Source: Myxococcales bacterium (lineage in GTDB: Bacteria; Myxococcota_A; Polyangia; Palsa-1104; JAEUJZ01). From it: DNA of 64,000 bases. The notes under the pieces are model-generated. The model made no database searches. It was given only the letters and a program-made list of their open reading frames with translations, and was not told the origin of the DNA. The stretch lies in NCBI GenBank assembly GCA_016794505.1, contig JAEUJZ010000076.1, positions 1-64,000 of the forward strand, given 5' to 3'. The position numbers and the translations under genes are program-made. Positions 1,785 to 20,586 of this stretch are shown here, piece by piece. Numbering within the stretch: position 1 is the stretch's first letter; the number at the start of each line of letters is the position of its first letter.

Positions 1785-3148
1785 GGCCAGCCTCCAAGCT
1801 GTGGTACGCCGCCGCGGTATACGTCGCCTAGCTCCCAGCCGTCGCGAAAGAAGCTCTCTAGCTCGGCCGGATCGACGCGTCGCATCGCCTTTTCACCCAG
1901 GCCAAAGACAAACAGCGCCACATCCCCGCTCTTGAAGCCATCGGTGAAGGTGTCGAGCAAGTCCGGCGAGTGCGTGCTGACGAAGAGCTGCTCGGCCGAT
2001 GTGAAGCGCTGCAGCCAGCCACCCACCACCTTGAGCCAGGCTGGATGCAGGTTCAGCTCGGGCTCATCGATCGACAGCACCGAGCCCTTCTCGGGCGAGA
2101 ACAATAGCAGCGCCAACCACAGCGCCTTGAGCGTTCCATCGGACATCTCGCGCGGCTTGTACTTCTGGCCGCCGATGTGCAGCTCAAGCTGTTTGTATAC
2201 GTCGCTGGCATCGATGATCTTGATGCGCTTCAGATCGGGGATTAGCTCCCTGAGCCGCTGCGGATATTCCTCGCTGAGGAAGTCATGCTGCTGGTCCAGG
2301 TGGCGCAGGACGTTCACGAACTCTGCGCCTTCCGCATCGAGCGTCCGCACGCCCAAATCGATCTTCGCCCCGTCGACCAGCTTGCGCAGGTTCAGGTCCG
2401 TGCTGCTGTAATTGCGGAAGCCGCGCGCGAAGCCGATCAGCTCTTCCGAGATGCGGTCGAAGTCGGGAAAGATCTTCTCGTAGAAGGCTTTGTCTTTCAG
2501 AAGCGCTTTCGTCTGATGCAGCACCGTGTCATTGGCTTCGACGGCGAGCTCGGCCTTGGTCATGGGAACCGCAGCCTGGCCCGGCGCATTGGACCGCGCC
2601 GTCTTTACGAACGTAGCTCTTCTGCTCCCTGCGCCATCGCTATTGCAGCTCACGCTGAACGTCGGTTGCTCACTGGGTGCCCCTGGAGCCCACCAGTCTC
2701 GGGGAGAAAAGCGAGCGAGCGCTTCGTTGCGAATGTAATACCCGCTTGGGAAGGAGTCTGGCTCACCGACAGTACAACTGAGCGCGTACAGGATATCCGA
2801 GGGAGGATGCGGCTCCGCGAAGAGGTCCCTGGTATCCGGGGAAGGTTGGCTGTCGAAGATCCACTGGAGATAGAAATCCGCATCGGACTTCGGGCGACCT
2901 TTGACTTTCTTCGCCCGCTCGGTGCGGTTCAGCACATCCGCTCGCCCGTGCGCCTCGATGGCATTCAGAAAATGCGTCGGCCCACCTTCGGTCAGAAGCA
3001 TGTCGGGCAAAAAGCCCATGGCTTTGATGAAGTTGCTCTTGCCCGAGTTGTTGGGACCGACGAGCAGATTGATCCGGCCAAGCTTTGGAAGCGTATTCCT
3101 CTCCACGTGAAGGTTCCGGTAGTGGACCGGCAAGAACGAGCGAAGCAT
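1778..3148 (-). CDS. AAA_21/ABC-type ATPase of the OLD/PARIS AriA/AbiLi class (predicted abortive-infection ATPase).
   Basis: Direct translation from the ATG at 3148 gives MLRSFLPVHYRNLHVERNTLPKLGRINLLVGPNNSGKSNFIKAMGF, a Walker A motif. Further on are VLSIDEPELNLHPAWLKVV (Walker B/D-loop) and FVSTHSPDLL (H-loop). The track ORF extends to 3271, but the upstream 41 codons are Arg/Gly-rich and likely non-coding. Confidence 0.8.
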   Translation of the reverse strand: MLRSFLPVHYRNLHVERNTLPKLGRINLLVGPNNSGKSNFIKAMGFLPDMLLTEGGPTHFLNAIEAHGRADVLNRTERAKKVKGRPKSDADFYLQWIFDSQPSPDTRDLFAEPHPPSDILYALSCTVGEPDSFPSGYYIRNEALARFSPRDWWAPGAPSEQPTFSVSCNSDGAGSRRATFVKTARSNAPGQAAVPMTKAELAVEANDTVLHQTKALLKDKAFYEKIFPDFDRISEELIGFARGFRNYSSTDLNLRKLVDGAKIDLGVRTLDAEGAEFVNVLRHLDQQHDFLSEEYPQRLRELIPDLKRIKIIDASDVYKQLELHIGGQKYKPREMSDGTLKALWLALLLFSPEKGSVLSIDEPELNLHPAWLKVVGGWLQRFTSAEQLFVSTHSPDLLDTFTDGFKSGDVALFVFGLGEKAMRRVDPAELESFFRDGWELGDVYRGGVPQLGGWPW

Positions 3149-3370
3149 GCCGTACCCTATCACGCGTCCCGACTGGATCAGCCCCCGCAAGCGCGGGGCT
3201 GCACCGCCGTTCATACCGCCGCGGCGCGGTCTTGCCCTGACCCCCAGGTTGCCCGGTCGAGCGGCTTCCATCGTCCGAGGAATTGCGGCATGGTGCCCTC
3301 GCTTGCTTGCCGTGGCTGGATCGCCTGCGTGTACGGGGTGAACGCCACACGCTCAACGCCTGGAGAAGCC
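3149..3370. promoter_or_regulatory. Divergent intergenic region between the ATPase operon (minus) and the GH31 gene (plus).
   Basis: About 220 bp without a credible ORF, flanked by divergently oriented start codons. Confidence 0.3.
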
Positions 3371-5923
3371 ATGTCTGCTGTCTGTGTCTCGGTTCGCACG
3401 CGCGTCGGCACCACCTTTCACCGACGCCTGGGGTTCTGGCTGGTGGCATCGCTTGGCTGGCTGCACTGCCAGCCGCAGCCGGGCCCCAAGGTCACGCTGG
3501 CTCAGGGCGACACGTCGCTGATCTTTGATCCAGCGGATCTCAGCCTGCGTCTGGTTCGCGGTGAAAAGCCGCTGCTGGTCTTTCCGCGCGACGCTCTTGC
3601 GCTTGGCGTGGTGGATCAAGTCAAGGGCTCGCTGAACTACGACCCGTGGCCGCTTGTCGGCGAAGAAGGCGCCTTCCCGGCGTCCACCCCCGATGGCCTG
3701 TCGTGGGAATCGCCGACCGCTGCGACGGTGGACGAGGCCACAGAAAAGAGCCTGCGCCTGCACCTCACATTCCCCCGCGGAACGGCGCAGCTTGCCATCG
3801 ATCAGACCGACAGCGGGCGCTATCGGCTGCAGCTTGTGCCAAAAGCCGAGGCCGCCCGCGTGGCCTACGTTCGCTTGATGCCGCAGATCGATGCGCAGGA
3901 AGGACTGTACGGCCTGGGCGCCGTCGAAGATCAGGTCAACCACCGCGGCAAGCGACGCGCCATGCAGATCGAGCTAATGGCCGAGGTCGAGAGCGGATAC
4001 AACGACATGCACGTGCCGATTCCGTTCGCCATCGGCACCACCGGCTGGGGACTTTTTGTCGAGAGTCGCCATCCCGCCGCCTGGGACATGGCCGCGACGC
4101 AGCCCGACCGCATCGCGGCACTGGTGGGCACCGGCCCCGACTCGCCAAAGGGGCTCTTGTTTCACCTGTTTTCAGCGGCGCACCCGCTGGATGTGACGAA
4201 GAAGTACTACGACGTCACCGGCACACCCGGACTGCCCGCCCGCTTTGCCTTGGGGCCGTGGCTGTGGCGCGACGATCACGTGACGCAGGCGCAGATCCTC
4301 GCGGACTGTAACTCCATGCGCGATCTCGATCTGGCGGACAACGGCATCTGGGCCGATCGGCCGTACTCGACGGGAATCAGCACCTTTGATTACGACAAAA
4401 AGACGTTCCCCGATCCCGATGCGATGCTGCGCACTGTGCGCGATCTGGGCTTTGCCTTTGCGCTGTGGCACTCGCCGTACATGGACGACAGCGACCCAGC
4501 GACGGCGATGCTGGCGCAAGAAGCCACGCAGGGCGGCTTTTATCCACCACAGGCGGGGATCCTGTTTACCAAGTGGGGACAGCCGATCGACTTCAGCAAT
4601 CCGGCGGCGGCGGCCTGGTGGCAGCGCAACCTGCGGCGCTATTCCGACGCAGGCGTCGTCGGCTACAAGCTCGACTATGGCGAAGACGTGCAGATCGGCC
4701 TGCCCGGTGGACGCAACGTCTGGAAGTTCTTCGACGGCAGCGACGAGCGCACCGGGCAAGCGACGTACAAGCTGGGCTATCACCGCGCGTTCGCCGAGAC
4801 GCTACCCAAAGACGGCGGCTTCCTTCTGTGTCGCGTCGGCACCTATGGCGGCCAACGATACGGCTGCGTGATCTGGCCCGGCGACATGGACGCCAACATG
4901 GCGCGCTATGGCGAGCGGCGAAAAGATCGCGGCGGCAAGGAATACGTCGCCATCGGCGGCCTGCCAGCGACGGTAATCTATGGATTATCACTGGGTCCTT
5001 CGGGGTATCCGTTTTACGGCGCCGATACCGGCGGCTATCGCCACTCGCCCCCCGATAAAGAGACGTTTGTGCGCTGGTTCGAACAGACGTCGCTGTCGTC
5101 GGTGATGCAGGTCGGCACCAGCAGCGACAACGTCCCGTGGGAGACGCCGCCCGATACCGATTTCGATGCGGAAGTGTTGGCGCTGTACCGGATCTATGCG
5201 CGCTTGCACCTGCGCCTGTGGCCGTACGAGTGGACCTTGGCGACGCGCATCGCGACGGATGGCCGCCCGATCCAGCGCCCGCTGGGCTTGGCCTATCCCG
5301 AGCTTGGCCAGCACCCCGACGATGTGTACCTGTTTGGCGACGATCTTTTGGTGGCGCCTGTCGTCGATCACGGCGCCCGAAAGAAGCGCGTCATTTTTCC
5401 GCCGGGTCGCTGGATCGACTGGTGGCAAGGCACGAGCCTGAACGGACCGCAGACCGTGACCGTCGCCGCGCCGCTGGGTGTGCTGCCGCTATACATCCGC
5501 GAAGGCGCCATCGTGCCGCTTCTGCGCCCGACCATCGATACGCTGCTGCCAACGACGCAGCCCGCTCGCGTTGACTCGTACGCGACGACGCCCGGCCTGC
5601 TGTATCCGCGCGTGGTGCCAGGGCCGGCCTCGCAGTTCGTGCTGTTCGACGAAAGCGTGCTCGCGCAAGAAGACAGCGAACGACAGCTTGTTCTGCGCAG
5701 CACATCGGGGCGCGAGTTTACGTCCGGCGCGCTGTTTGAAGTGCTGGCCTGGGGAGCGCGTTCGCCAAGCGCCGTGCAGCGGGCCGGTGCTCTCATGGCC
5801 GAGCAGCCGTCGCTGAGCGAGCTCGAAAAGGCCGAGTCAGGCTGGCTGTATGACGCAGCGCGCGGTGGCACGCTGTACATCAAAGTACCCCGTGGCGATC
5901 AGCGCGTCGTGGTGCAGAAATGA
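3371..5923 (+). CDS. Glycoside hydrolase family 31 (alpha-glucosidase/alpha-xylosidase-like), secreted.
   Basis: ATG at 3371 followed by a signal-like N-terminus. The protein has the GH31 motifs WGLFVES, GIWADRPYSTGISTFDYD, GVVGYKLDYGED and VIWPGDMDAN. The track ORF 2285-5923 extends upstream antisense to the ATPase, and that part was rejected. Confidence 0.85.
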   Translation: MSAVCVSVRTRVGTTFHRRLGFWLVASLGWLHCQPQPGPKVTLAQGDTSLIFDPADLSLRLVRGEKPLLVFPRDALALGVVDQVKGSLNYDPWPLVGEEGAFPASTPDGLSWESPTAATVDEATEKSLRLHLTFPRGTAQLAIDQTDSGRYRLQLVPKAEAARVAYVRLMPQIDAQEGLYGLGAVEDQVNHRGKRRAMQIELMAEVESGYNDMHVPIPFAIGTTGWGLFVESRHPAAWDMAATQPDRIAALVGTGPDSPKGLLFHLFSAAHPLDVTKKYYDVTGTPGLPARFALGPWLWRDDHVTQAQILADCNSMRDLDLADNGIWADRPYSTGISTFDYDKKTFPDPDAMLRTVRDLGFAFALWHSPYMDDSDPATAMLAQEATQGGFYPPQAGILFTKWGQPIDFSNPAAAAWWQRNLRRYSDAGVVGYKLDYGEDVQIGLPGGRNVWKFFDGSDERTGQATYKLGYHRAFAETLPKDGGFLLCRVGTYGGQRYGCVIWPGDMDANMARYGERRKDRGGKEYVAIGGLPATVIYGLSLGPSGYPFYGADTGGYRHSPPDKETFVRWFEQTSLSSVMQVGTSSDNVPWETPPDTDFDAEVLALYRIYARLHLRLWPYEWTLATRIATDGRPIQRPLGLAYPELGQHPDDVYLFGDDLLVAPVVDHGARKKRVIFPPGRWIDWWQGTSLNGPQTVTVAAPLGVLPLYIREGAIVPLLRPTIDTLLPTTQPARVDSYATTPGLLYPRVVPGPASQFVLFDESVLAQEDSERQLVLRSTSGREFTSGALFEVLAWGARSPSAVQRAGALMAEQPSLSELEKAESGWLYDAARGGTLYIKVPRGDQRVVVQK

Positions 5924-7206
5924 GCGCCGACCTTCCCCATCTTGCGCTGCGTATCGACGGCGCGCGGCTCTTGGATCGCCTGCAGGCTCTGGCCCAGATC
6001 GGCGCCTACCAAGGCCCAAACGGCGAGCCAGGCTGCAGCCGCTTGGCGCTGACCGATGCCGATCGAGCAGGTCGCGATCTCGTCGTGTCGTTCATGCGCG
6101 AGCAGGGCTTGCAGATCCGCATCGACGCCATCGGCAACGTGCTGGCGATTCGCCCCGACCACCGTGGTCGCGTCGAGCAGCCGGTGCTGGCCGGCAGCCA
6201 CATCGACACCGTGCGCACGGGTGGTCGCTACGACGGAAACCTGGGTGTGCTGGCCGGCCTGTCCGCGATCGAAGCCGTTGCGCGAGCCGGGATCGCCACG
6301 CGTCGGCCGCTGGCCGTGGCGTTTTTTACCAACGAAGAAGGGGCGCGCTTTAGCCCCGACATGCTGGGCAGCTTGGTCTATGCCGGCGGCCTGCCGCTCG
6401 ACGAGGCCTATGGCATCCGCGGCATCGATGGCGCGACGGTTGGTGACGAGCTTCGACGCATTGGCTACGCGGGCTCGGCGGCGTGTCCAGGGCCCGTGCC
6501 GGCTGCGTATGTGGAGCTGCACATCGAGCAAGGCCCCGTGCTGGAAGCAGCGGGCTTGCGCATCGGTGCCGTCACGGGTGTGCAGGGCATAAGCTGGCAA
6601 GAGATCACCATCACCGGCCAGTCCAACCACGCCGGCACAACGCCGATGGCGCTGCGTCACGATGCCGGCTATGCCGCGGCGCGGGTGGCAACGTTTGTGC
6701 GCGAGCTGGCCTGCGAGCTAGGCCCACCGCAGGTCGGCACGGTGGGACAGATCACGCTGTTTCCAGGTCTGGTGAACGTCATACCGGCCACGGCCAAGCT
6801 GACCGTGGATCTGCGCCACACCGACGAACAATCCCTGCAGCAGGCCGAAGCTCGCCTGCGCGAATTCGCGGCGCGCTTGGCACAGCAGGAAGGCGTGCAG
6901 ATCACGTCGCGCTCGCTCGCTCGCTTTGCGCCTGTGGCGTTTGATCCACAGATGATCGCGCTGATCGAGTCGACGGCGCAGCGCCTGGGGGCCAGCACGC
7001 AGCGCATGCCGAGCGGGGCTGGACATGACGCGCAGATGATGGCGCGGCTGTGTCCAGCGGGGATGATCTTCACGCCCAGCCAGCGCGGCATCAGCCACAA
7101 CCCCGCCGAATGCACCGCACCCGACGATCTGATCCTGGGCGCCAACATCCTTCTGCAGGTGATGTTGACGCTGGCGCAGAGCGAAGCGCTGCTGCCATCG
7201 CCGTGA
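5920..7206 (+). CDS. M20 family Zn-dependent amidohydrolase (N-carbamoyl-L-amino-acid hydrolase / allantoate amidohydrolase-like).
   Basis: Full-length similarity to the AmaB/AllC/HyuC class (…LAGSHIDTV…GNLGVLAGL…). The ATGA start/stop overlap with GH31 (ATG at 5920, TGA at 5921-5923) was verified in the sequence. Confidence 0.8.
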   Translation: MSADLPHLALRIDGARLLDRLQALAQIGAYQGPNGEPGCSRLALTDADRAGRDLVVSFMREQGLQIRIDAIGNVLAIRPDHRGRVEQPVLAGSHIDTVRTGGRYDGNLGVLAGLSAIEAVARAGIATRRPLAVAFFTNEEGARFSPDMLGSLVYAGGLPLDEAYGIRGIDGATVGDELRRIGYAGSAACPGPVPAAYVELHIEQGPVLEAAGLRIGAVTGVQGISWQEITITGQSNHAGTTPMALRHDAGYAAARVATFVRELACELGPPQVGTVGQITLFPGLVNVIPATAKLTVDLRHTDEQSLQQAEARLREFAARLAQQEGVQITSRSLARFAPVAFDPQMIALIESTAQRLGASTQRMPSGAGHDAQMMARLCPAGMIFTPSQRGISHNPAECTAPDDLILGANILLQVMLTLAQSEALLPSP

Positions 7207-7207
7207 T

Positions 7208-8239
7208 CTATGCGTCGCTGCCTGGATGCGACGATCCGGCATAGGTCTCGGGACGCTGATCGCGCCGCAGATCCCAGCCAGCGGGGTCCGGGGCGTGCAG
7301 GGCGCGCAGGTCCAGGTCGCTTACGATCAGCTCAGGATGGTGGCTCAGGTTGGCCAGATCCCCGTCGGGGCCACAGAAATAGCTGTCGCCGAAGTACTCG
7401 ATGTTCCATGGTGGCTCGCAGCCTTTGCGGTTGCTGCCGCCGATGTACACGCGGTGGCGCATGGCATCGGTGGGGAACTCGTGTCGCCACATGCGCCGCG
7501 ATTTTTCACCGAAGGTGATTGCCGGGCACAAGACGATCTCGGCCCCCGCGGCGGCCAGGCTGGCGACGCTGCCAGAAAAGTGACGGTCGTAACAGATGGC
7601 GACACCGATGTGGCCCACCGACGTGGCAAAGACTGGAAAGAACGGCGATGCGCTCTGCACGGCTGCGCTGCGCGGCAGGTTCCCGTCGCTGGCGTCGTAA
7701 TAAAAGGTCTCGAAGAACGCGCCTTGTTCGTTGTGGCCGCGCGGAATGTGGACCTTGCGAAAGCTGCCCAAGAGTGCGCCATCGGCATCGATCACGACGG
7801 CGGTGTTGAAGCGGCGACCGCTGCGGCAGCGCTCAAAAATGGGGGCGACGACGACGATGCGGCAGGCTGCGGCCACCTGTCGAAACGCCTGCACCGATGG
7901 ACCTTCGACGGCGTCTTCGGCCAGATCGCGCCACAGCGGCTCTTCCGACAGGGCGAAGTATGGCGCCGTACACAGCTCGCCCAAGCAGACGAGCGTCGCG
8001 CCGGCTTCTTTTGCGGCGCGGATCAGCTGCACGTTGTGCGCGACGTTGGCTTGGCGAATCGCATCCAGCGCTGTAGCCAAGCCCTGCACATCGGAAGGCT
8101 GACTGGGCATGGCCAGATACGCATTCTTGGTCTGCGTCAGCGCCGCGCGGACCATGCACAAAGGCGGCCTGCGATCCGCGCCAGCGGCCTGCGCTGATGG
8201 GCCCTCATATACCTCACGATCTGCGCGAATCTTGCTCAT
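7208..8239 (-). CDS. Carbon-nitrogen hydrolase (nitrilase superfamily; beta-ureidopropionase / N-carbamoyl-amidase-like).
   Basis: E-K-C triad context: MVRAALTQ…, FRKVHIP (Lys), GVAICYD (catalytic Cys). The start ATG overlaps the upstream gene's stop (ATGA at 8236-8239). Confidence 0.8.
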   Translation of the reverse strand: MSKIRADREVYEGPSAQAAGADRRPPLCMVRAALTQTKNAYLAMPSQPSDVQGLATALDAIRQANVAHNVQLIRAAKEAGATLVCLGELCTAPYFALSEEPLWRDLAEDAVEGPSVQAFRQVAAACRIVVVAPIFERCRSGRRFNTAVVIDADGALLGSFRKVHIPRGHNEQGAFFETFYYDASDGNLPRSAAVQSASPFFPVFATSVGHIGVAICYDRHFSGSVASLAAAGAEIVLCPAITFGEKSRRMWRHEFPTDAMRHRVYIGGSNRKGCEPPWNIEYFGDSYFCGPDGDLANLSHHPELIVSDLDLRALHAPDPAGWDLRRDQRPETYAGSSHPGSDA

Positions 8240-9747
8240 CGTTCGGCTCCGGTCAATAACACGGCTACGTCTTCTCCGTCGGAAATTTCAGATGAAAACG
8301 CGTCTTCTTGCATTCGGGTCAATAAGCCAGCCAGGCCCGCAGAGCCGGTTGCACACACGCGAAGGAAGCCGGCCTGCTTTGCCGCAGTGTGCGCCTGGGC
8401 CAGCGCTGCTTCCGATGCCAACACCGGATAGCCGCCAGAAGACAGCATGCCTTGCAGCGCACAGGCCCAGTCGTACGTCTCGTCATCCAAGATGCCGCGC
8501 GCCAGGCTGTGCGGTTCACCGACCATCGTCCACGGCCACATGAATGCGTGCCGATGCTGCCGCGCGAAGTGCAGCGCCTGCCGCACGGCGGACTGCTGCG
8601 CGGGCTGCGTCAGGATCTCGGCCCAGCGCGGAAAGAGCGACGGCGCGATCGCTGGATACTCGGTGGCCGGCAGCGCCTTGCTGATCTCGGCCAGGATCCG
8701 CTGATACGCGCGAACAAGCGGCGCCACAGCCGATGTCTGCACGGCATACACACGCGGCAGCGTCGACAACAGGCCACTCTGTACCGCTTCGGCAAGCGCT
8801 GCCACCACCGCGCTGAGCAGCGCTCCGCCGCCCACCTGCACGAACAGGTGTCGCAGCCGCTGACGACGCGGCCCCAGCGCATCGAGCAGCTCATACACAA
8901 TCGTGTGAGCCCCTTGAATCGTCAGTCCGTTTTCAGGTCCCTGGCAGCAAAACGGCAGCGCGCCGGCTGCCACCGCCGCCTGAAACGCGCGGTATGTCGG
9001 ATCCCCCGCAGCCGAGTGCCGCGCTGGATCACGATGCGGGGCCGCGCGCGTGCAGATCGTGACGTCGGCCCCCAGCGCTCGCAGGTGCGCCTGCGTCGAG
9101 GCCTCGGCGGTGGGCGGAATAAAGACCAGCAAGCGCCGCCCGCAGGCTCGCGCCAGGACCGCTGCGGCCCGTGCTGCGTTGCCACAGCTTGCGATGGCCA
9201 GGGGTCGGCCCCGATCTGCGCGCTCGGCCAGCACCGCGCTCAGCGTCTGGCCGGACGCCAGCGCTTCATCGACGAGGATCTCAAGCAGCAGGCCGAACAG
9301 GTGGCGGCCTTTGTGCGATCCGCTGACGTTTTCGCTTTCGTCTTTGCACCACAGCGTGCTGCCAGATGGGAGTCCAAGTTGCTTAGCCAGCGACGGAGAC
9401 GCCCGAAGCGGTGTCGAGCGAAAACCCGTGCCTGCGATGGCTGCGACCTGCGCATCGAGCGTCCGCACCAGCGCGATGAAGTCGGCATCGTCCACGCCCA
9501 TGGCGCGGGCGCGGTGATACGCAAACAAGCGCTGGCGAAAGCGCACAAACGGCAGCGGCTCGTCTGCGTCGCTGGCAGCGTGGGAATCGCCTGGCAGCGC
9601 AAGCGGCGTGTCAATGCGACGCTGCAGCAGGTGATCCGTGTCGTCGTGATCGTGCGACACACGGACGCGCGGACAGCGCCAAGGCTCAGCGGCCTGCCAC
9701 GGGTGGAGCGCGCCACAGCCGGCGCAGATCAAAGACGCGCCGATCAC
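8236..9747 (-). CDS. PLP-dependent fold-type II enzyme, threonine-synthase-like, with an N-terminal Cys-rich (zinc-ribbon-like) segment.
   Basis: PALP motif LWCKDESENVSGSHKGRH (cf. KxExxNPTGSFKDR). The likely start is the GTG at 9747, forming GTGA with the stop of the upstream gene at 9744-9746. The track gives a TTG start at 9828. Confidence 0.7.
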   Translation of the reverse strand: MIGASLICAGCGALHPWQAAEPWRCPRVRVSHDHDDTDHLLQRRIDTPLALPGDSHAASDADEPLPFVRFRQRLFAYHRARAMGVDDADFIALVRTLDAQVAAIAGTGFRSTPLRASPSLAKQLGLPSGSTLWCKDESENVSGSHKGRHLFGLLLEILVDEALASGQTLSAVLAERADRGRPLAIASCGNAARAAAVLARACGRRLLVFIPPTAEASTQAHLRALGADVTICTRAAPHRDPARHSAAGDPTYRAFQAAVAAGALPFCCQGPENGLTIQGAHTIVYELLDALGPRRQRLRHLFVQVGGGALLSAVVAALAEAVQSGLLSTLPRVYAVQTSAVAPLVRAYQRILAEISKALPATEYPAIAPSLFPRWAEILTQPAQQSAVRQALHFARQHRHAFMWPWTMVGEPHSLARGILDDETYDWACALQGMLSSGGYPVLASEAALAQAHTAAKQAGFLRVCATGSAGLAGLLTRMQEDAFSSEISDGEDVAVLLTGAER

Positions 9748-11237
9748 GATGGGCTGGCTCCGGTGCGATGGTTGAAGTCGTCGATCAAAGCATCCAAGCT
9801 GGCCACGCAAGATCGCAGTCGACGCCAAAAGGCTTGCGTGCGGCGCGCCACAAAGTCCTCGCAGCAGATGCCTTGCTGTTCCACCCAGGTGAAGTAACCG
9901 AGATTGAAGATGCGACGACGCTCGCTCGCGGTCAGCTCTAGGGTTGCATCGCTGTTGGCGCCTGCGATGTGTCGCCCAAAGACCTCGGCGGCATCCGAAG
10001 CATCGAAGCGACCAGCAAAGTCGCGCGCTCGCACCTTTTTGATCTCGGATTGGTATAGCTCGGCGCTATCGGTGGCCACGGTGATCACGGCATCGTCTTC
10101 GGACAGACGCAGCGTGTGGGCCAGCTTGATGGCTCCCACGATGTTGGCCAGACCCGACAGCCCAAGCTGCGAAAGCTCGGTCACAAGCGACCGCGCGATC
10201 GCGCGCCGACTGGCCAGCGCGTCACGTCCCGCTGGGGACTGCAGAAGACAAAACAGCTGGTCGCTGGCGCGATCAGAAACGCCGACGACAAAGTCCGTGT
10301 TCATGACGTTGTGGATCAGCGGCACATGCTTGTCACCAATGCCTTGGATGTTGTGCTCGCCAAAGCCGTTCTCAAGCAGCGTCGGACACTCCAGCGCTTC
10401 CAGTGCCGCGATGCGTACGGCATAGCGATCCTTCAGCCAATCGCCAGCTGCCAAGGTCCCGGCCGATCCCGTACCCGCGATGAAGGCGGCCAAGCGCAGC
10501 GGGGGATGATTGACTCGCGCAGCCTCGAAGATCTCGGCGAGCGCCGGCCCCGTGCAGGTGTAGTGCGAAAGATAATTCGAGAGCTCTTGGAACTGATTGA
10601 GGATCACGCTGCGTGGATCGGCGGCCAAGCGGTGGCAAGCGTCGTAGATCTCTTTGACGTTGCTCTCGCTGCCTGGTGTGGCGATGACATCGCTGGGATC
10701 TGCGACCCACTGTTTAAGCCAGGCAAAGCGCTCTGCCGACATGCCCGCAGGCAGCACAGCGACGCCCCGACAGCCCAGCAGCTTGGACACCGCAACCCCG
10801 CCGCGGCAGTAATTTCCCGTCGAGGGCCACACCGCGCGCTGCTGCGTCGGATCAAACTGCCCCGTCACCAAGCGGGACACCAGCGCCGCGTATGCGGGCA
10901 ACACTTTGTGCGCGCCGATCAGCGGAAAGTGTCGCGCCACCGCGACCAGGATCGCTGCCTTCACACCGGTCACCGATTCGGGCAAGTGCAGATACGCTGG
11001 AACCGTGCGCTGACCGCCCTGCTCGTCGTTGTACCAGTGGATGCGCAGCAAGTGACGTGAGTCGCTGGCAGAGCCTGCCGCAGCCTGCTTCAGGCTCGCG
11101 CGCAGAGCCGGTGACTGCCAGCCGGGATCGGCCAACTGAGCAAACGTCGGCAGATATACACCGCGGGCAGCTACATGCTGCACAGCGCGGGCATGCACGG
11201 CGGCATCTATGATCTCGGTCTTGGGAAGCAGCGTCAT
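9744..11237 (-). CDS. PLP-dependent fold-type II enzyme, cysteine-synthase/CBS-like, with N- and C-terminal extensions.
   Basis: PSTGNYCRGGVAVSKLLGCRGVAVLP is a cysteine-synthase-type glycine-rich loop. I take the start at MTLLPK (codon 54 of the track ORF). The upstream 53 codons are P/R/S-rich and overlap the amidohydrolase gene. Confidence 0.7.
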   Translation of the reverse strand: MTLLPKTEIIDAAVHARAVQHVAARGVYLPTFAQLADPGWQSPALRASLKQAAAGSASDSRHLLRIHWYNDEQGGQRTVPAYLHLPESVTGVKAAILVAVARHFPLIGAHKVLPAYAALVSRLVTGQFDPTQQRAVWPSTGNYCRGGVAVSKLLGCRGVAVLPAGMSAERFAWLKQWVADPSDVIATPGSESNVKEIYDACHRLAADPRSVILNQFQELSNYLSHYTCTGPALAEIFEAARVNHPPLRLAAFIAGTGSAGTLAAGDWLKDRYAVRIAALEALECPTLLENGFGEHNIQGIGDKHVPLIHNVMNTDFVVGVSDRASDQLFCLLQSPAGRDALASRRAIARSLVTELSQLGLSGLANIVGAIKLAHTLRLSEDDAVITVATDSAELYQSEIKKVRARDFAGRFDASDAAEVFGRHIAGANSDATLELTASERRRIFNLGYFTWVEQQGICCEDFVARRTQAFWRRLRSCVASLDALIDDFNHRTGASPS

Positions 11238-11298
11238 CAGTCTGGATCCTTGGCTGTGCCTGCGTTCTGGGTATGCCGGCTGCGAAAGCTGCCTGGGC

Positions 11299-12375
11299 TT
11301 ACTCGCGCGTCGCGGGCAGGTCCCGCATGCGCTGCCACAGCCGCTCGGCTTGCTGGGCGGCGTGGGTGCGGATCGCATCGATATCGTCGCCGACAAGCCG
11401 TCCGTTTTCGACGACCAAGCGACCGCCGATGCACACGCGGATCACGCGCCCATCCCGATCGCGAATCACGTCATCGGTCGCCAGATCGTCCGGCGAAAAG
11501 TGCTGCTGCAAGATCGCATGCCCCGCCGCAAGACGCGCCTGCGCCGTGGCGTCATCGTCGCCGTACGCGGCGCCGTGCTGACACAGGGCCTGCTGTTCTT
11601 GCGTCATGTCGGAAGGAAAGCCATCGCTGCCCAGCGCCACCCGCTTGCTGTGTCGCAGCGCCTGCGCATAGCCGACGCGATTTTTGTGATTCGAACGCGG
11701 GTTGTGAACCAGCCACAGGCCAAGCGCCTCGGCAGATCGCACCTGCTCGACATCCAAGTGGACCCCGTGCGCGAGGATCGAGCCAGCCGGCAAGGCGCCC
11801 AGACGAACGAGCCGCTCAAGCGGTCCGGGCTCGCCGCGGCGCTGCGCATCCAGCACATCGCAGCGATCTTCGGCGACGTGTACGTGCAAGGGAACGCGGT
11901 GCTCGTGACACAGTCGGCTCGCCAGCTCGATCGTCGCATCCGAGACGGTAAACGATGCATGCAGGCCCACCATGCCCCGCACCAAGCGGCGATGATTTTT
12001 CCGCAGGAAGCGCTGGCACTCAGCCAGGCCAGCGTGCCCTTCGTCGATTCCGCGGTTGCGCTCGCTGGCGCCGTAACAGAGCAGCGCACGCATCCCAAGC
12101 TGCTCGCAGACATCGGCCAGCACATCCAGCGAGCCGGCGATGCACTGCGGCGACTCATGGTGATCGATGATCGCGGTGGTGCCCCAAAGCAGCGCTTCAG
12201 CGACGTACAGGCGAGCCGCGGCGTACAAGCTGCTTTCGTCCAGCGCGCGGTCGAGTCGCCACCAAATGCGCTGCAAGATCTGCAAGAAATTCTGCGGTGG
12301 TACCGACGGTGCCGGCAGCCCCAGTGCAGCCAGGCCGCTGTACACGTGTGTGTGTGCGTTGACGTGGCCTTGCAT
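11299..12375 (-). CDS. Metal-dependent aminohydrolase of the TRZ/ATZ family (SsnA-like / MTA-SAH-deaminase-like).
   Basis: HxH metal motif NAHTHVY at the N-terminus, later VHNPRSNHKNRVG (NPxSNxK signature), and a C-terminal HxxD region. Confidence 0.75.
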   Translation of the reverse strand: MQGHVNAHTHVYSGLAALGLPAPSVPPQNFLQILQRIWWRLDRALDESSLYAAARLYVAEALLWGTTAIIDHHESPQCIAGSLDVLADVCEQLGMRALLCYGASERNRGIDEGHAGLAECQRFLRKNHRRLVRGMVGLHASFTVSDATIELASRLCHEHRVPLHVHVAEDRCDVLDAQRRGEPGPLERLVRLGALPAGSILAHGVHLDVEQVRSAEALGLWLVHNPRSNHKNRVGYAQALRHSKRVALGSDGFPSDMTQEQQALCQHGAAYGDDDATAQARLAAGHAILQQHFSPDDLATDDVIRDRDGRVIRVCIGGRLVVENGRLVGDDIDAIRTHAAQQAERLWQRMRDLPATRE

Positions 12376-12418
12376 GGGCTCAGCCTCTTTTGTCCTGCGT
12401 CATGTCGTGTTTGATACC
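12376..12418. promoter_or_regulatory. Short divergent promoter region between the SsnA-like operon and the YgfK/PreA-like gene.
   Basis: About 43 bp between divergent start codons. Confidence 0.3.
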
Positions 12419-14359
12419 ATGCGCCTGCCGCTTGGAGGTCGCATGGAGCTTTTGCCGCAGCCTTGGTCCTCGCTGTTGCGTCGCCTGCTATATGAGCTTG
12501 CGCGCGGTGAAGCGATCTACGATCTGCCGCCGCACCGCATGTGGCGTGGCGCCCAGCGTGATCTGTCGCTGTCGCTTTCGGGTCGCCGCGTCTCGACGCC
12601 TATCGGGCCGGCCGCGGGGCCGCATACGCAGCTTTCGCAGAACCTGGTGCTCGGCTATCTGGCCGGGGCGCGCATCTTTGAGCTCAAGACGATTCAGCGC
12701 AACGACACGCTGCGCATTGCCCGACCCTGCATCAGCGCGCGGGACCTCTGTTACAACGTCGAGTGGTCGCAAGAGCTTCGGCTGCCGCAGTCGCTGCAGG
12801 AATACGTCAAGGGCTGGCTGCTGATCCACACGCTGCGTCGGCGTCTGCTGCTGCGGCCCGCCGATGTTGACTTCGTCTTTGATGCCTCGGTGGGCTATGA
12901 CCTGGCAGGCATAACGTCCGATGCGGTGGCGCGCTTCATCGATGGCCTGCGCGATGCTCGGCCGACGATCCGCGCGCTGTGCGAGGATCTCGATCCCGCG
13001 CTGCGCCGCGCATTGCCCGACGACATTCCGCACGAAGTGAGCAACTGCGTCACGCTGTCGACGTTTCATGGCTGCCCGCCCGAAGAGATCGAGCGCATCG
13101 TCGAGCACTTGTTTACTCGGCACGCCGTCGATGTCGTGCTGAAGCTCAATCCGACGCTGTTGGGGCACGACGAGATCGCCGAGATCTTGATCGCGCAGCA
13201 CGGCTATCACGACCTTGTGCTGCACAAGCCGGCGTTCGCAAACGATCTCAACTGGAGCGATGCGCTGTCGCTGGTCGAGCGCTTGCGAGCCGCGGCCAAG
13301 CGCACCGGACGCGCGCTATCGGTCAAGTTCAGCAACACGCTGGTGGTTGAGAACCATCGCCAGATCCTGCCGGCCAGCGAGCCGCTTCTGTATCTGTCGG
13401 GTCAGCCGCTGCACCTGTTGGCCATCACGCTGGCCCAGCGCTTTGCGCAGGCGACGGCAGGAGCGGTGCCGATCTCGCTGTCGGGTGGCGTCGATCAGCA
13501 GAACTGCGCCGATGTCGTAGCCTGCGGAATCGCGCCGGTTACCGTGTGTACCGATCTTCTGCGCGCAGGTGGCTATGGCCGCTTGCCCAAGTACCTCGAC
13601 GGGATCGAGGCGGCTCTGGCCCGGCAGGGCGTCGAATCCGTCTCTGCGCTGGTGCAGAAAAACGGCGGCTTGCTCGCAGCGCTTTCGGCGTATGCGCCGA
13701 AGGTGCTGGCCGATGCTCGCTATGGCGCGGCCAAGAACGCCAAGGGCCCGCGCCGCGTCGACAGCGAGCTGCGCTTGTTCGACTGCTTAAGCTGCGATAA
13801 GTGCGTCGCCGTCTGTCCCAACGACGCCAACTTCCCCTTTACCACCGACCCTGTTCGGCCGCTTTCGACGATCGATCTGGTGATCGGCGACGATGGAACG
13901 CTGCGCAACGAGCCGGGGCCCAGCTTTGCCCTGACGGAAGCACACCAGATCGCGCACTTCGCCGACGCCTGCAACGCCTGCGGCAACTGCGATGTGTTCT
14001 GCCCCGAGTCGGGCGGACCCCACCAGGTCAAGCCGCGCTTCTTTTCCCAGACAAGCTACGACGCAAGCGCACCACACGACGGCTTTTTGCTGACCGAGGA
14101 CGGCCTGCGCGGGCGCTTTTCGGGCGTTGAGTATCGCTTGACACTACACAGCGATCGCCACGTGCTTTCCGACGGACAGATCGAGGTCGCGCTGGATCCC
14201 AGGCAGGGATCAGTGCTGCAGGCCCAGGCCCTGCCAAACGCCCAGCGAGGCCATCGCCTGCCCCTTTGGCGATACCACGCCATGCGGGCTCTGCATCATG
14301 GAGTGCGGTCGGGATCCAACCCGGTGTCGGCGCCGTTTCTGCCCCTTGGAAGCGGCTAG
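12419..14359 (+). CDS. Dihydroorotate/dihydropyrimidine-dehydrogenase-like TIM-barrel flavoenzyme with C-terminal 2x[4Fe-4S] ferredoxin domains (PreA / YgfK C-terminal-like).
   Basis: VSTPIGPAAGPHTQLSQNLVLGYLAGARIFELKTIQRND (DHOD-family N-terminus). Two CxxCxxCxxxCP motifs (CLSCDKCVAVCPND, CNACGNCDVFCPES). Start chosen at the ATG at 12419 (MRLPLGG…). Confidence 0.7.
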   Translation: MRLPLGGRMELLPQPWSSLLRRLLYELARGEAIYDLPPHRMWRGAQRDLSLSLSGRRVSTPIGPAAGPHTQLSQNLVLGYLAGARIFELKTIQRNDTLRIARPCISARDLCYNVEWSQELRLPQSLQEYVKGWLLIHTLRRRLLLRPADVDFVFDASVGYDLAGITSDAVARFIDGLRDARPTIRALCEDLDPALRRALPDDIPHEVSNCVTLSTFHGCPPEEIERIVEHLFTRHAVDVVLKLNPTLLGHDEIAEILIAQHGYHDLVLHKPAFANDLNWSDALSLVERLRAAAKRTGRALSVKFSNTLVVENHRQILPASEPLLYLSGQPLHLLAITLAQRFAQATAGAVPISLSGGVDQQNCADVVACGIAPVTVCTDLLRAGGYGRLPKYLDGIEAALARQGVESVSALVQKNGGLLAALSAYAPKVLADARYGAAKNAKGPRRVDSELRLFDCLSCDKCVAVCPNDANFPFTTDPVRPLSTIDLVIGDDGTLRNEPGPSFALTEAHQIAHFADACNACGNCDVFCPESGGPHQVKPRFFSQTSYDASAPHDGFLLTEDGLRGRFSGVEYRLTLHSDRHVLSDGQIEVALDPRQGSVLQAQALPNAQRGHRLPLWRYHAMRALHHGVRSGSNPVSAPFLPLGSG

Positions 14360-14371
14360 CGGCACGCCGTG

Positions 14372-15436
14372 CTACTTGGTCAGCGTGCGCGTGTATTCGA
14401 CTTTGCCGGTCTTGTCGATGAACTCAGCGGTCAGCGTGCGACCGACGATGGTCACGTACAGAAAGCCCAGCTCTTTCGACTGAAAGCGGAAGGCGTTGCG
14501 GCCGGGCAGATCGGTCGCGCTCGCTCCAGCGCCCGACACCGCAAGCTCGGTGCCTTTGCAGGTGCCGGTCAGCCACTGCCGGCTGTGATCGTGCCCTGAT
14601 AGGTACAGGTCGACCTTGCCGCAGACGTTGTCGTCGAAGAACTTCTTGACGTTCTGACCGCCCGCGATCGGCACGTACCATAGGCCGTCGTAGTTACCCG
14701 CGTTGCCGTGCTTGCCATTGGACAGATAGGGGTGATGGCCGAGCGCGATCTTCCACGTGGTCGTCGACGAGGCCAGCCAGCCAGCCAGCGCCATCTTTTG
14801 CTTGTCGATGTCGCGGTTGAACATCATCAGGTTGGTGTCCAGGCCAAAGAAGTCGACGTTTCCGACGGTGCGGCGGTAGTGCGCGGCCGGCAGCTTCCAC
14901 TTCATCGACTTGGCGGTATAGGCGACCTCGTGCGCGCCTTTGCCGAACTCCCACCCGGCGCCGTCCCCGCCGTAGTCATGGTTGCCAAGGACGACATAAA
15001 ACGGCAGCGCGATGGCCTTGTAGGGCTCTTCAAACTTGGTCTGCCACTGCGGATCGTCGACGCCTTTGACGCCGCTGTCATAGATGTTGTCGCCGAGAAG
15101 CTGCACAAAGTCGCAGCCGCGGCTGGCGCAGTGCTTTTCAATGGCAGCGGCCACATCTTTTTGGCCTTGGTTGCCCTTGCCGGTGTCGCCCATGGCCACG
15201 AAGCGCAGCGTCGGATCGACGGTCAGCGAGGGACGCTGTTCAGAGCTGCGCAGCTCATCGCCATCGCTTGCGACCTCGTCATCGCCCGCCTCTTCCACCC
15301 CATCTTCGACGTCGACTTCCTCTTCCCCGCCGCAGGCTGGCAAAAGAGAAAGGGGCAGCACCAGCAGCGATGCCGCCAAGGTTCTGCGAAGCGTGGATGA
15401 ACGACGAACCGACGATGGCAGATGGTTTGTACGCAT
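14372..15436 (-). CDS. Calcineurin-like metallophosphoesterase lipoprotein (purple-acid-phosphatase-like).
   Basis: Signal peptide with LLPACGG lipobox. Motifs GDTG, GDNIYD, GNHDY and GHHPY/GHDH. Confidence 0.75.
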   Translation of the reverse strand: MRTNHLPSSVRRSSTLRRTLAASLLVLPLSLLPACGGEEEVDVEDGVEEAGDDEVASDGDELRSSEQRPSLTVDPTLRFVAMGDTGKGNQGQKDVAAAIEKHCASRGCDFVQLLGDNIYDSGVKGVDDPQWQTKFEEPYKAIALPFYVVLGNHDYGGDGAGWEFGKGAHEVAYTAKSMKWKLPAAHYRRTVGNVDFFGLDTNLMMFNRDIDKQKMALAGWLASSTTTWKIALGHHPYLSNGKHGNAGNYDGLWYVPIAGGQNVKKFFDDNVCGKVDLYLSGHDHSRQWLTGTCKGTELAVSGAGASATDLPGRNAFRFQSKELGFLYVTIVGRTLTAEFIDKTGKVEYTRTLTK

Positions 15437-15603
15437 GCGCGCACTGTGCAAAAAGGCGCCCAATTTGTAAAGAGAGTGCCCTTGCCGTGCGCTGCAATGA
15501 ACGATGGACCGCGATCCGTACGCTGGCCCCGGATGAACGCATCCGAGTCGGTTCGCCAGGACTGCTTCGCGCTGCGGACGACGGTGTGCTCGAAAGCGCG
15601 TGG

Positions 15604-17550: not shown

Positions 17551-17694
17551 ACCCCACGGTATCGTGAGCGACGCGGCCAGGTCAACGAACCCGACGGCTC
17601 TGCAGCCGGCACAAGCGGGGGCGGACCAGGCCGGCTCAGACGGGCCGTGGTTTTGTGTGTCCGCTGATCGCGAACTTTGTTACTTTTTTTTGTT

Positions 17695-18198
17695 ATGAGC
17701 CTAGACATTTCCTACCAGGGACTTCCCATCACGCGACAGGCTAGCGGGCGCTTTGAGGACGGCGGCTTGTTCGTCGCCAGCGAAGCCCCCATGCCCGTCG
17801 CCACGGGGCTGCTTTTGGCGCTGGGTGAGCAGACGTTTTCCGGCAAGGTGCGGCGCGTCCGCGAAGGCAGCGGGGCCGGCATGCTGATCGTTTCAGCCGA
17901 CGGCAAGAAGTTCCCGCGCTGGCTGATGAGCCTGCACCCCGAGACCGCCGCTGCCTCGTCCGAGATCTTTGAGGCAGAGCCGCCCCCACCGCCGCCGGTT
18001 GTCGAGGCCCCCCCTGCCCCCGCTTCCGTCGAACCTGCTGTGGACGCGGCCCCGTCGGCTCATACTCCTGATGGCGACGGCGATGCAGCAGCCGGTGGCG
18101 CCGACGATGAGGACGACGCCAAGACCGCCAGCAAACCGAGCGATGGCAAAAAGCCCGGTGGCGGCAAGAAAAGCGGCAAGAAGCCGCGCAAGCGCTAG
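17695..18198 (+). CDS. Hypothetical protein with a Pro/Ala-rich linker and a Lys-rich C-terminal tail.
   Basis: Uninterrupted ORF with an ATG at 17695 and low-complexity PPPPPP…KKPGGGKKSGKKPRKR at the C-terminus. Confidence 0.4.
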   Translation: MSLDISYQGLPITRQASGRFEDGGLFVASEAPMPVATGLLLALGEQTFSGKVRRVREGSGAGMLIVSADGKKFPRWLMSLHPETAAASSEIFEAEPPPPPPVVEAPPAPASVEPAVDAAPSAHTPDGDGDAAAGGADDEDDAKTASKPSDGKKPGGGKKSGKKPRKR

Positions 18199-18277
18199 TT
18201 CGTATGCAGCGATCGGCGCACGGCCGCAGCGCTTTAGGGGACGTTGCGCGCCGTTGAGCGGAGCCAGCCCGTCGAGA

Positions 18278-20582: not shown

Positions 20583-20586
20583 TTAT

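Follow-up and report, generated by a model that had tools for sequence, protein, structure and literature searches.

A candidate hydrolytic variant of the reductive purine pathway in a six-gene cluster of a Myxococcales contig

The stretch of DNA considered here, hereafter called the window, comprises the first 64,000 nt of contig JAEUJZ010000076.1 of a Myxococcales bacterium (G+C content 63-66%). At positions 5920-14359, the region that we analyzed, it carries a cluster of six genes that may serve the degradation of purines. All six open reading frames (ORFs) are intact, and Pfam together with NCBIfam places them in the families that a preliminary description of this DNA had assigned from the letters of the sequence: an aminohydrolase related to SsnA of Escherichia coli, an iron-sulfur flavoenzyme of the YgfK/PreA kind (hereafter YgfK-N), two fold-II enzymes dependent on pyridoxal 5'-phosphate (PLP), of which one resembles cysteine synthase (PLP1) and the other threonine synthase (PLP2), a carbon-nitrogen hydrolase (CN-hydrolase) and an M20 hydrolase (table 1). 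Four of the genes form a tight operon on the minus strand, with 61 nt between the SsnA-like gene and that of PLP1; the start/stop overlaps reported previously are read directly in the sequence as GTGA at 9744-9747 (PLP1 stop, PLP2 start) and ATGA at 8236-8239 (PLP2 stop, CN-hydrolase start). The M20 gene converges on this operon, as had also been stated, its stop codon facing that of the CN-hydrolase at a distance of 1 bp.

Table 1. Features of the cluster and their positions in the window
Feature	Positions	Strand	Product or remark
M20 hydrolase	5920-7206	+	428 aa
CN-hydrolase	7208-8239	-	343 aa; last gene of minus-strand operon
PLP2 (ThrC-like PLP enzyme)	8236-9747	-	503 aa; GTG start
PLP1 (CysK-like PLP enzyme)	9744-11237	-	497 aa
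SsnA-like aminohydrolase	11299-12375	-	358 aa; heads minus-strand operon
Divergent intergenic region, presumed shared control region	12376-12442	.	sequence read directly
YgfK-N (YgfK/PreA-like Fe-S flavoenzyme)	12443 (or 12419)-14359	+	638 (or 646) aa

Two details of that description need correcting. The ATG at 12443 has GGAGG 5 nt upstream and agrees with the public call of a 638-aa gene, and it is most likely the start of YgfK-N, so that the gap between the divergent SsnA-like and YgfK-N genes would measure 67 bp, and not the 43 bp previously given, which correspond to a start at 12419. An Rfam scan at the gathering threshold returned no match to a riboswitch or other RNA, the divergent intergenic region included, and a scan for promoter and terminator consensus sequences gave nothing usefully above shuffled expectation, with no informative promoter consensus between the divergent genes. 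At the other end of the cluster, the start of the M20 gene overlaps, in the ATGA at 5920-5923, the stop codon of a co-directional gene for a GH31 glycosidase (3371-5923, plus strand, 850 aa by public gene call), which lies directly upstream; M20 may thus share a transcript with this glycosidase rather than with the cluster.

The reference for our comparison is the reductive uric acid pathway, shown in 2025 with genes of E. coli and Clostridium (10.1101/2025.05.19.654654; 10.1101/2025.04.24.650524). In these studies, XdhD reduces urate, giving 2,8-dioxopurine, which YgfK and SsnA together turn into ureidomethyl-hydantoin, YgfK reducing the ring and SsnA opening it (Li et al. 2025; PMC12507026). 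The downstream order is HyuA, YgeW, YgeY and YgeX (Liu et al. 2025; 10.1101/2025.04.24.650524): HyuA opens the hydantoin to 2,3-diureidopropionate, the two ureido groups are taken off by YgeW, which works with the carbamate kinase YqeA, and by YgeY, and YgeX converts 2,3-diaminopropionate into pyruvate and ammonia. For SsnA, the opening of YgfK-reduced 2,8-dioxopurine has been demonstrated with the enzymes of E. coli and Clostridium and no others. The E. coli genes are arranged as ygeW-ygeX-ygeY-hyuA-yqeA...ygfK-ssnA-ygfM-xdhD and, as in the window, where the two genes are divergently adjacent (table 1), a YgfK-type reductase is paired with an SsnA-type amidohydrolase. In both clusters, moreover, two enzymes would be available for two ureido groups and fold-II PLP chemistry would come last.

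YgfK-N, which we propose to be the ring reductase, has YgfK as its closest family (TIGR03315, E 1e-123, the next family reaching 3e-4), with 414 bits against a cut-off of 835 and a match to positions 6-458 of the 1012 in the model. BLASTP aligned it to E. coli YgfK at 39% identity over residues 5-410 and 29% over residues 897-998, with no alignment to residues 411-896 and no Pfam match to Pyr_redox_2 or Fer4_20; YgfK-N is thus YgfK minus its central GltD-like module for FAD and NAD(P)H. The domains present are an FMN barrel, as in dihydroorotate and dihydropyrimidine dehydrogenases (DHOD and DPD, respectively), and a C-terminal part with two 4Fe-4S clusters, the latter recognizable from two CxxCxxCxxxCP motifs (CLSCDKCVAVCP and CNACGNCDVFCP) and a Pfam match to Fer4_17. 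This is the layout of PreA, and the likeness is limited to it: the PreA model NF006183 gave 18.8 bits against a cut-off of 335, Pfam found no PF01180 domain, and a sequence search of the PDB returned no relative. Of the best 150 representatives of the family (clusters at 50% identity), 65 measure 580-800 aa and 52 exceed 1000 aa; the nearest relatives of YgfK-N are nearly all short, the short architecture forming a sizeable clade.

The aminohydrolase is a short relative of SsnA, for which we propose the hydrolytic opening of a reduced heterocycle. SsnA is its closest NCBIfam family (E 5e-79, followed by a TRZ/ATZ family at 8.5e-25) and its sole BLASTP match when 14 proteins from the purine-gene region (yge/ygf) of E. 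coli, GuaD included, were compared (34% identity to SsnA residues 55-441). Scores with the SsnA models NF005540 and TIGR03314 lie below the cut-offs (266 vs. 444 and 254 vs. 455 bits; E 5e-79 and 2e-75), the alignments covering only model positions 58-325 or 57-336. The ORF begins at about residue 55 of SsnA, the first ~55 residues being missing, with only 43-67 bp to the next gene; other members of the family, such as P0048 and P0104, retain this N-terminus. It is because of their truncation relative to the models that both the SsnA-like and the YgfK-like protein score below the family cut-offs. Aligned with E. coli SsnA, the protein keeps all the metal and catalytic residues of amidohydrolases (HxH, His, His, Asp, HxxE), namely H8, H10, H164, H166, E169, H203 and D251. 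The NPRSNHK signature is present in the translation, as are the other motifs that had been pointed out before, namely the two 4Fe-4S motifs of YgfK-N and the Cys-rich N-terminus of PLP2, which we followed in 35 homologues. The short SsnA-like family has thousands of relatives of ~60% identity, abundant in Acidobacteriota, Myxococcota and other environmental metagenome-assembled genomes (MAGs).

The architecture of YgfK-N recalls the reductive pyrimidine route of PreT/PreA, dihydropyrimidinase and β-ureidopropionase, which has the same FMN barrel with two C-terminal 4Fe-4S clusters and the same logic of reduction, ring opening and decarbamoylation. However, that route employs a PreT partner and a dihydropyrimidinase, whereas the window has an enzyme of the TRZ/ATZ-SsnA type and no PreT, and it has no use for two decarbamoylases and two fold-II PLP enzymes. 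The preliminary description had also drawn a parallel with reductive pyrimidine catabolism; given the failure of the PreA model, it finds no specific support and we have rejected it as the primary explanation.

The two PLP enzymes, as judged by curated models and BLASTP, belong to no named family, and neither is an orthologue of YgeX/DpaL. Both match Pfam PALP. PLP1 scored 77.6 bits against a cut-off of 351 with CysK (TIGR01139) and 29 against 394 with CysM (TIGR01138), with no match to the diaminopropionate ammonia-lyase models NF006058 and TIGR03528, and PLP2 scored 60.6 against 303 with ThrC (NF006050 and related models) and 37 against 276 with diaminopropionate ammonia-lyase. Neither protein matched E. 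coli YgeX by BLASTP at 1e-3; the true YgeX-like proteins found in other PLP1 loci reach 513 bits with the YgeX/DpaL models. These values bear upon the simplest view of the cluster, namely that an ordinary cysteine synthase, a threonine synthase, a guanine-deaminase-type enzyme and miscellaneous hydrolases happen to be neighbors. Public labels would agree with it: PLP1 goes under no other name than "cysteine synthase" or "PLP-dependent enzyme", PLP2 is labelled "threonine synthase" or "threonine dehydratase", and M20 may be co-transcribed with the glycosidase. Yet the equivalog models for CysK, CysM, ThrC and guanine deaminase were all missed by wide margins, the four genes of the operon are linked by 4-bp overlaps or the 61-nt gap, and the combination of genes recurs in distant phyla, which indicates more than chance. 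We therefore consider a fortuitous neighborhood highly improbable, and the assignment of the PLP enzymes as ordinary cysteine and threonine synthases is rejected on the basis of curated cut-offs and synteny. The scores also tell against cysteine biosynthesis and guanine deaminase, the example that the preliminary description had set against its own proposal.

PLP1 is present in at least 599 species-representative genomes, with 52-60% identity across phyla. The PLP lysine (AHK), the Asn loop (STGNY), the Gly loop (GSAGT) and a Gln (NQF) are invariant across 35 sequences; the protein shares with O-acetylserine sulfhydrylase, cystathionine β-synthase and β-cyanoalanine synthase the fold, the Schiff-base lysine, the Gly loop for the phosphate and the Asn loop for the carboxylate. 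It differs in carrying at either terminus a helical extension of ~100 residues, and in a conserved GIGDKH where relatives have GIGAGF. The AlphaFold2 (AF2) model has a pLDDT of 90.8, and the best Foldseek matches in the PDB are CysK, β-cyanoalanine synthase and cystathionine β-synthase (TM score ~0.78 on the target), with H2S-producing CysK homologues among the structural neighbors. The intact α-carboxylate loop within a β-replacement fold points to a 3-N-substituted alanine as the substrate, and we infer that PLP1 may catalyze β-replacement or β-elimination on such a compound, for example diaminopropionate or ureido-alanine. (Two PLP1 homologues of 665 aa, P0125 and P0126, were considered as domain fusions and rejected, their extra length being a stretch of ~170 residues repeated in tandem inside the protein, in all likelihood through faulty assembly.)

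PLP2 carries at its N-terminus a zinc-ribbon-like Cys3-His motif, in which C8, C11, C25, D38 and H39 are invariant in 35 homologues, as is the lysine of SGSHK, and it also has an invariant ILDDETYDW motif. Its sequence retrieved only two weak matches from the PDB (E 9e-7 and 2.7e-5). With the AF2 model (pLDDT 86.7), Foldseek scored threonine synthase, threonine deaminase, serine racemase, D-serine dehydratase and diaminopropionate ammonia-lyase alike, and PLP2 shares its fold and PLP-binding residues with the threonine synthases, threonine deaminases, serine racemases and diaminopropionate ammonia-lyases. Identity to solved structures is 15-27% for PLP1 and PLP2, and AF2 models compared with the PDB by Foldseek gave no specific functional match for either, only general groups.

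CysK-fold enzymes are also known to make precursors of diaminopropionate and heterocyclic β-substituted alanines. The cluster might accordingly be biosynthetic, the CysK- and ThrC-like enzymes building a non-proteinogenic amino acid (diaminopropionate-derived or a heterocyclyl-alanine) to be tailored by the hydrolases; a match to the SbnA family exists, though a weak one (31 bits vs. a cut-off of 350), and myxobacteria are rich in secondary metabolism. However, no gene for a non-ribosomal peptide synthetase, polyketide synthase, ATP-grasp enzyme, export or resistance lies beside the cluster, and the module is found at 52-60% identity in at least six phyla, often near a carbamate kinase, as is typical of energy-yielding catabolism. 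We regard a biosynthetic role as improbable.

The two hydrolases are better defined. The M20 protein has the Pfam domains Peptidase_M20 and M20_dimer and passes the hydantoinase/carbamoylase amidase model TIGR01879 (396 bits vs. a cut-off of 204), in line with the AmaB/HyuC type considered from the start. It also scores 453.4 against 452 with the allantoate amidohydrolase subfamily NF006769 and misses the AllC equivalog (262 vs. 598); its nearest solved chains are N-carbamoyl-L-amino-acid and N-carbamoyl-β-alanine amidohydrolases (E 1e-91 to 1e-103). The CN-hydrolase (PF00795, E 6e-38, 131 bits vs. 23) has the motifs LGELC, RKVHIP and AICYD of the Glu-Lys-Cys triad and misses the AguB equivalog (143 vs. 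410). Its best relatives in the PDB are β-ureidopropionases (2vhh, E 1.6e-27), N-carbamoylputrescine amidohydrolase and N-carbamoyl-D-amino-acid hydrolases, as expected of the decarbamoylase-type hydrolase that it had been taken for. Homologues of M20 (59-60% identity) occur in the PLP1 loci L059 and L065, and those of the CN-hydrolase (55-59%) immediately follow PLP2 in L059 and L049. Both proteins thus fall in families with characterized ureido-cleaving members, and their number matches that of the ureido groups of 2,3-diureidopropionate, for which reason we propose that they are two decarbamoylases, each acting on one ureido group. The window therefore combines two hydrolases of decarbamoylase families with two fold-II PLP enzymes, none of which is orthologous to YgeW, YgeY or YgeX.

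To place these genes in a wider context, we compared the best 80 of at least 599 species-representative PLP1 loci, with up to 10 kb of flanking sequence on each side, by tblastn and de novo clustering of the neighbors; the loci come from Acidobacteriota, Actinomycetota, Chloroflexota, Myxococcota, Gemmatimonadota and Proteobacteria, and the cluster of E. coli K-12 (L090) served as comparison. PLP1 is the constant member of the conserved module. PLP2 adjoins it in 52 of the 80 loci, and wherever public gene calls exist (six loci), an overlap of 1-4 bp joins the pair. Thirty loci were classified as purine type, defined by the presence of an XdhD-like gene (at least 45% identity to the L006 protein) or of an SsnA-like gene. 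Among these 30, an SsnA-like gene is found in 29, PLP2 in 27 and an XdhD-like gene in 23; a reductase (YgfK, YgfK-N or an F420-dependent luciferase-like protein) accompanies 19, a YgeW-like carbamoyltransferase, sometimes in two copies, 20, a YqeA-like carbamate kinase 12, a YgeY-like M20 protein eight, a HyuA-like protein five and a YgeX-like protein a single one. Identity of a representative to the E. coli protein amounts to 34% for SsnA (window protein), 27% for XdhD, 35-41% for the YgfK types, 35% for YgeW, 48% for YqeA, 34% for YgeY, 38% for HyuA and 39% for YgeX.

Several loci reproduce the window or bridge it to E. coli. Locus L059 (Vicinamibacteria) has XdhD-like, SsnA, PLP1, PLP2, CN-hydrolase, M20 and YgfK-N genes, that is, the six genes of the window plus an XdhD-like one, and L011 (a Rubrivivax MAG) combines PLP1-PLP2 with relatives of all the E. 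coli steps except YgeX, its SsnA-like gene being detected by tblastn. The order SsnA-PLP1-PLP2-CN-hydrolase recurs in L049 (Polyangia), and a Myxococcota MAG (L092) has XdhD-SsnA-PLP1-PLP2 with a convergent YgfK-N. The 82%-identity relative of the window (L091) keeps the divergent arrangement of YgfK-N with SsnA-PLP1-PLP2, and no XdhD gene adjoins it. Neighborhood conservation therefore ties the PLP genes to relatives of XdhD, SsnA, YgfK, YgeW, YqeA, YgeY and HyuA in many phyla, and those of XdhD, YgeW, YqeA, YgeY and HyuA surround PLP1-PLP2 in loci related to the window.

Within the 80 loci, PLP2 hardly ever occurs together with a YgeX-like gene (1/51/6/22, Fisher p=0.0065), and it shows a positive association with XdhD-like genes (p=0.0002). 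The anti-correlation suggests that PLP2 is a functional analogue of diaminopropionate ammonia-lyase and, of the two PLP enzymes, the more likely counterpart of YgeX.

PLP1 is also found in two contexts of a different kind. In α- and β-proteobacteria, it occupies about positions 10001-11470 of loci L060 (Xanthobacter sp. VNH20), L071, L072, L074, L055, L018, L043 and L063, in which a complete set of F420 biosynthesis genes (cofE-cofD-cofC-fbiC) precedes it in the core order. After PLP1 come the α and β subunits of a CoA-transferase, then an F420-dependent luciferase-like oxidoreductase and lastly an ABC transporter of the branched-chain type. The surroundings include genes for a PxpABC-like lactamase, Fno, a CoxSML-type molybdenum (Mo) hydroxylase, GntR, a deacylase (ArgE/DapE) and a true diaminopropionate ammonia-lyase; neither PLP2 nor SsnA occurs in these loci. 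The gene set appears to be uncharacterized, and very similar gene families are among the accessory genes tied to nodule competitiveness in Sinorhizobium meliloti GR4, KH35c and KH46 (PMC8407117). In Ilumatobacteraceae and related MAGs of Acidimicrobiia and Actinomycetota (L022, L035, L045, L066, L079, L084), PLP1-PLP2 lie amid genes for ClpP, RNase PH, Ham1 and glutamate racemase, beside a divergent gene for a fold-III PLP protein resembling D-serine dehydratase (Ala_racemase_N plus D-ser_dehydrat), which hints at a link of PLP1-PLP2 with D-amino-acid metabolism. The occurrence of PLP1 outside purine clusters implies that its role is not simply that of YgeX.

Since Mo hydroxylases are common to the two main contexts of PLP1 (XdhD-like in one, CoxL-like in the other), the enzyme, with or without PLP2, might be imagined to serve the Mo hydroxylase, for instance by supplying sulfide, persulfide or selenium for the labile ligand of its cofactor, and not to be catabolic at all. 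The H2S-producing CysK homologues structurally close to PLP1 would fit, and XdhD of E. coli and Clostridium is reported to require a labile selenium cofactor with dedicated maturation genes; none of these maturation genes was seen in the PLP1 loci. Against this stand the window, L091 and the Ilumatobacteraceae loci, which have PLP1-PLP2 and no Mo enzyme within at least 10 kb, the full amino-acid carboxylate loop of β-replacement enzymes retained by PLP1, and its position in the operon between catabolic enzymes. Known cofactor sulfuration, moreover, uses fold-I desulfurases of the NifS type together with XdhC. A service role of this kind has, in our judgment, only a slim chance of being correct.

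A more serious alternative is that the same chemical logic acts upon another N-heterocycle or ureido compound, such as a 5-amino- or otherwise 5-substituted pyrimidine, a hydantoin or an oxopurine taken up directly. No XdhD-like gene is present in the window or beside the cluster of L091, the XdhD-like neighbors found elsewhere are without the insertion specific to E. coli XdhD, YgfK-N has the layout of PreA and DPD, and both it and the SsnA-like protein remain under their family cut-offs; PLP1 also belongs to the heterocycle-type cluster with a CoxSML-type Mo hydroxylase, an F420 reductase and a PxpABC-like lactamase. Indeed, the F420-type and housekeeping contexts of PLP1 keep alive both this possibility and that of a more general role for the enzyme. 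On the other hand, the PreA model gave 19 bits against a cut-off of 335, a reductive pyrimidine route would require a single decarbamoylase plus a transaminase of fold I, with no call for two decarbamoylases and two fold-II enzymes, and relatives of YgeW, YqeA, YgeY and HyuA recur near PLP1-PLP2, with an XdhD-like gene adjacent in 23 of 30 purine-type loci, including L092 of Myxococcota. We consider a different substrate possible and rather unlikely.

The view towards which we lean is that the cluster serves a hydrolytic form of the reductive purine (uric acid/2,8-dioxopurine) pathway, in which hydrolases would remove both ureido groups and PLP1-PLP2 would replace YgeX; the roles of all steps are inferred from homology and gene context. 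YgfK-N would reduce the pyrimidine ring of an oxopurine, presumably 2,8-dioxopurine produced by an XdhD-like Mo enzyme encoded elsewhere and, having no NAD(P)H/FAD module, it must receive electrons from a separate donor. The short SsnA-like amidohydrolase would open the reduced ring hydrolytically and, after a second ring opening for which the window has no hydantoinase, the CN-hydrolase and M20 would hydrolyze the two ureido groups. These hydrolases would replace the YgeW-type carbamoyltransferases and carbamate kinase of most related clusters, so that the substrate-level gain of ATP would be given up. Finally, the coupled PLP1-PLP2 would turn 2,3-diaminopropionate, or a mono-ureido derivative of it, into pyruvate and ammonia in the place of YgeX, PLP1 perhaps adding a step of β-replacement or β-elimination that is absent from E. 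coli.

The window differs from the E. coli cluster in several respects: YgfK is without its FAD/NAD(P)H module and SsnA without its first ~55 residues, there is no XdhD, YgfM, HyuA, YgeW, YqeA, YgeY or YgeX, decarbamoylation would be carried out by a CN-hydrolase and an AmaB-type M20 enzyme and not by YgeW/YqeA and YgeY, and two unrelated fold-II families occupy the place of YgeX, in a host that is probably an aerobic environmental bacterium. The parallel with an SsnA/YgfK/YgeX/YgeY-type pathway that the preliminary description had drawn is supported by the profile searches, with SsnA and YgfK as the closest families, and by the conserved neighborhoods; the PLP enzymes are not YgeX/DpaL orthologues.

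Several observations weigh against the proposed purine pathway. Searching the 64-kb window with 14 proteins of the E. coli cluster by tblastn, we retrieved only YgfK and SsnA, and searches with the L006 XdhD-like protein, carbamate kinase, permease, hydantoinase-like and other neighbor proteins revealed no further pathway genes; XdhD-, HyuA-, YgeW-, YqeA-, YgeY- and YgeX-like genes are all absent, which leaves the entry step and the opening of the hydantoin unaccounted for, and no PreT/GltD-like partner for YgfK-N was found in the window. The SsnA-like and YgfK-like proteins both lie under curated family cut-offs, M20 possibly belongs to the transcription unit of GH31, and a decarbamoylase is missing within 10 kb in seven of the 30 purine-type loci. 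The XdhD-like Mo enzymes of ~875 aa (L006, L008, L010, L015, L027, L059, L092) have the fused 2Fe-2S and Mo layout of E. coli XdhD, but they are no nearer to XdhD than to XdhA and do not have the insertion holding E606, which has been suggested to orient urate in the E. coli enzyme; their orthology to XdhD is thus unproven and their substrate deduced from context. PLP1 itself occurs without PLP2 or SsnA in F420/CoA-transferase clusters carrying a true YgeX-like lyase and, with PLP2, among the housekeeping genes of Ilumatobacteraceae. Lastly, the published pathway is described for anaerobes, and the likely Myxococcota host is usually aerobic.

Some features of the hydrolytic purine variant proposed here have precedents among characterized or predicted systems. 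In Clostridioides difficile (UacX, UacY; Li et al. 2025), as in the window, the reductase is without an FAD/NAD(P)H domain and an external low-potential donor is presumed; the 2-ureido group is removed hydrolytically and not phosphorolytically, as we propose for the window. The proteins differ: UacX is of the PydA/DHO_dh type (PF01180), the reductase of the window being a shortened YgfK, and UacY is a D-aminoacylase homologue of the Amidohydro_3 family and not a CN-hydrolase; C. difficile also retains HyuA, YgeY and YgeX. Clusters with SsnA and an F420-type luciferase-like reductase have been noted bioinformatically in Chloroflexota and Actinomycetota (Li et al. 2025). Those of Chloroflexota share the PLP1-PLP2 pair with the window and differ in the family of the reductase; in our sample, L015, L019, L024, L044, L048 and L056 have XdhD-like, SsnA-like, luciferase-like oxidoreductase, PLP1-PLP2 and YgeW-like genes, with a carbamate kinase also in L019, L044, L048 and L056. 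In that study, YgeX was scored by Pfam PF00291 alone, and Acidobacteriota and Myxococcota went unmentioned (PMC12507026); PLP1 and PLP2 would thus have been counted as YgeX and their replacement of it was probably overlooked. In the literature that we searched on SsnA/YgfK, the pathway intermediates and F420 with uric acid, no description of PLP1, PLP2 or the truncated YgfK was found.

A further possibility, which we advance tentatively and hold to be less likely than not to be right in full, is that PLP1-PLP2 constitute a new coupled two-enzyme module with a chemistry absent from the E. coli pathway, within a five-gene core of XdhD-like, YgfK-N, short SsnA, PLP1 and PLP2. Such a module could, for example, act directly on 3-N-substituted alanines, releasing their ureido or amino group by β-elimination or β-replacement; deamination would come next, perhaps together with an inversion between D and L forms. 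If so, the five-gene core would be a largely self-contained route of purine degradation in environmental, mostly aerobic phyla, and PLP1 would be a shared hub, feeding also the F420/CoA-transferase-dependent heterocycle pathway of Proteobacteria.

Pfam searches with ten other large ORFs of the window gave unrelated assignments (FtsA, DnaB, PtsI, a kinase and lectin-domain proteins). Downstream of the cluster (14372-22642) lie genes for a secreted metallophosphoesterase, a 648-aa lipoprotein without Pfam match, a CotH-domain protein and an EGF-repeat protein, followed by Ser/Thr kinase, FG-GAP and ricin-lectin proteins, a gene content typical of Myxococcota, the phylum to which the nearest named relatives (L049, L092, P0074) also point. 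On the other side, the Pfam labels in the public gene table of the contig indicate an AAA_21/AAA_15 ATPase gene (1778-3271, minus strand) and then a DUF4276 gene (~924-1784, minus strand), a pairing typical of OLD-like or abortive-infection-type defense modules.

Only in 2025 was the reductive purine pathway elucidated, and it has been portrayed as belonging to anaerobes, those of the gut among them. Our comparison suggests that its front end of XdhD-like, YgfK-type and SsnA-type proteins is widespread in soil and water phyla, namely Acidobacteriota, Actinomycetota, Chloroflexota, Myxococcota, Gemmatimonadota and Proteobacteria, and that the back end may have been swapped repeatedly, with phosphorolytic or hydrolytic decarbamoylation, reductases that are NAD(P)H-linked, F420-linked or devoid of a donor module, and two PLP families in the place of YgeX. 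Thousands of PLP1 proteins in the databases are labelled generically as "cysteine synthase"; assigning the reaction of PLP1 would correct this large block of annotation and could add an enzyme for engineered urate-degrading strains. What is new here is the pair of widespread uncharacterized PLP families and the donor-less form of YgfK, the kind of pathway itself being already established. The cluster is thus not a new category of system; it would widen the ecological range of the reductive purine pathway and expose a concrete gap in its enzymology.

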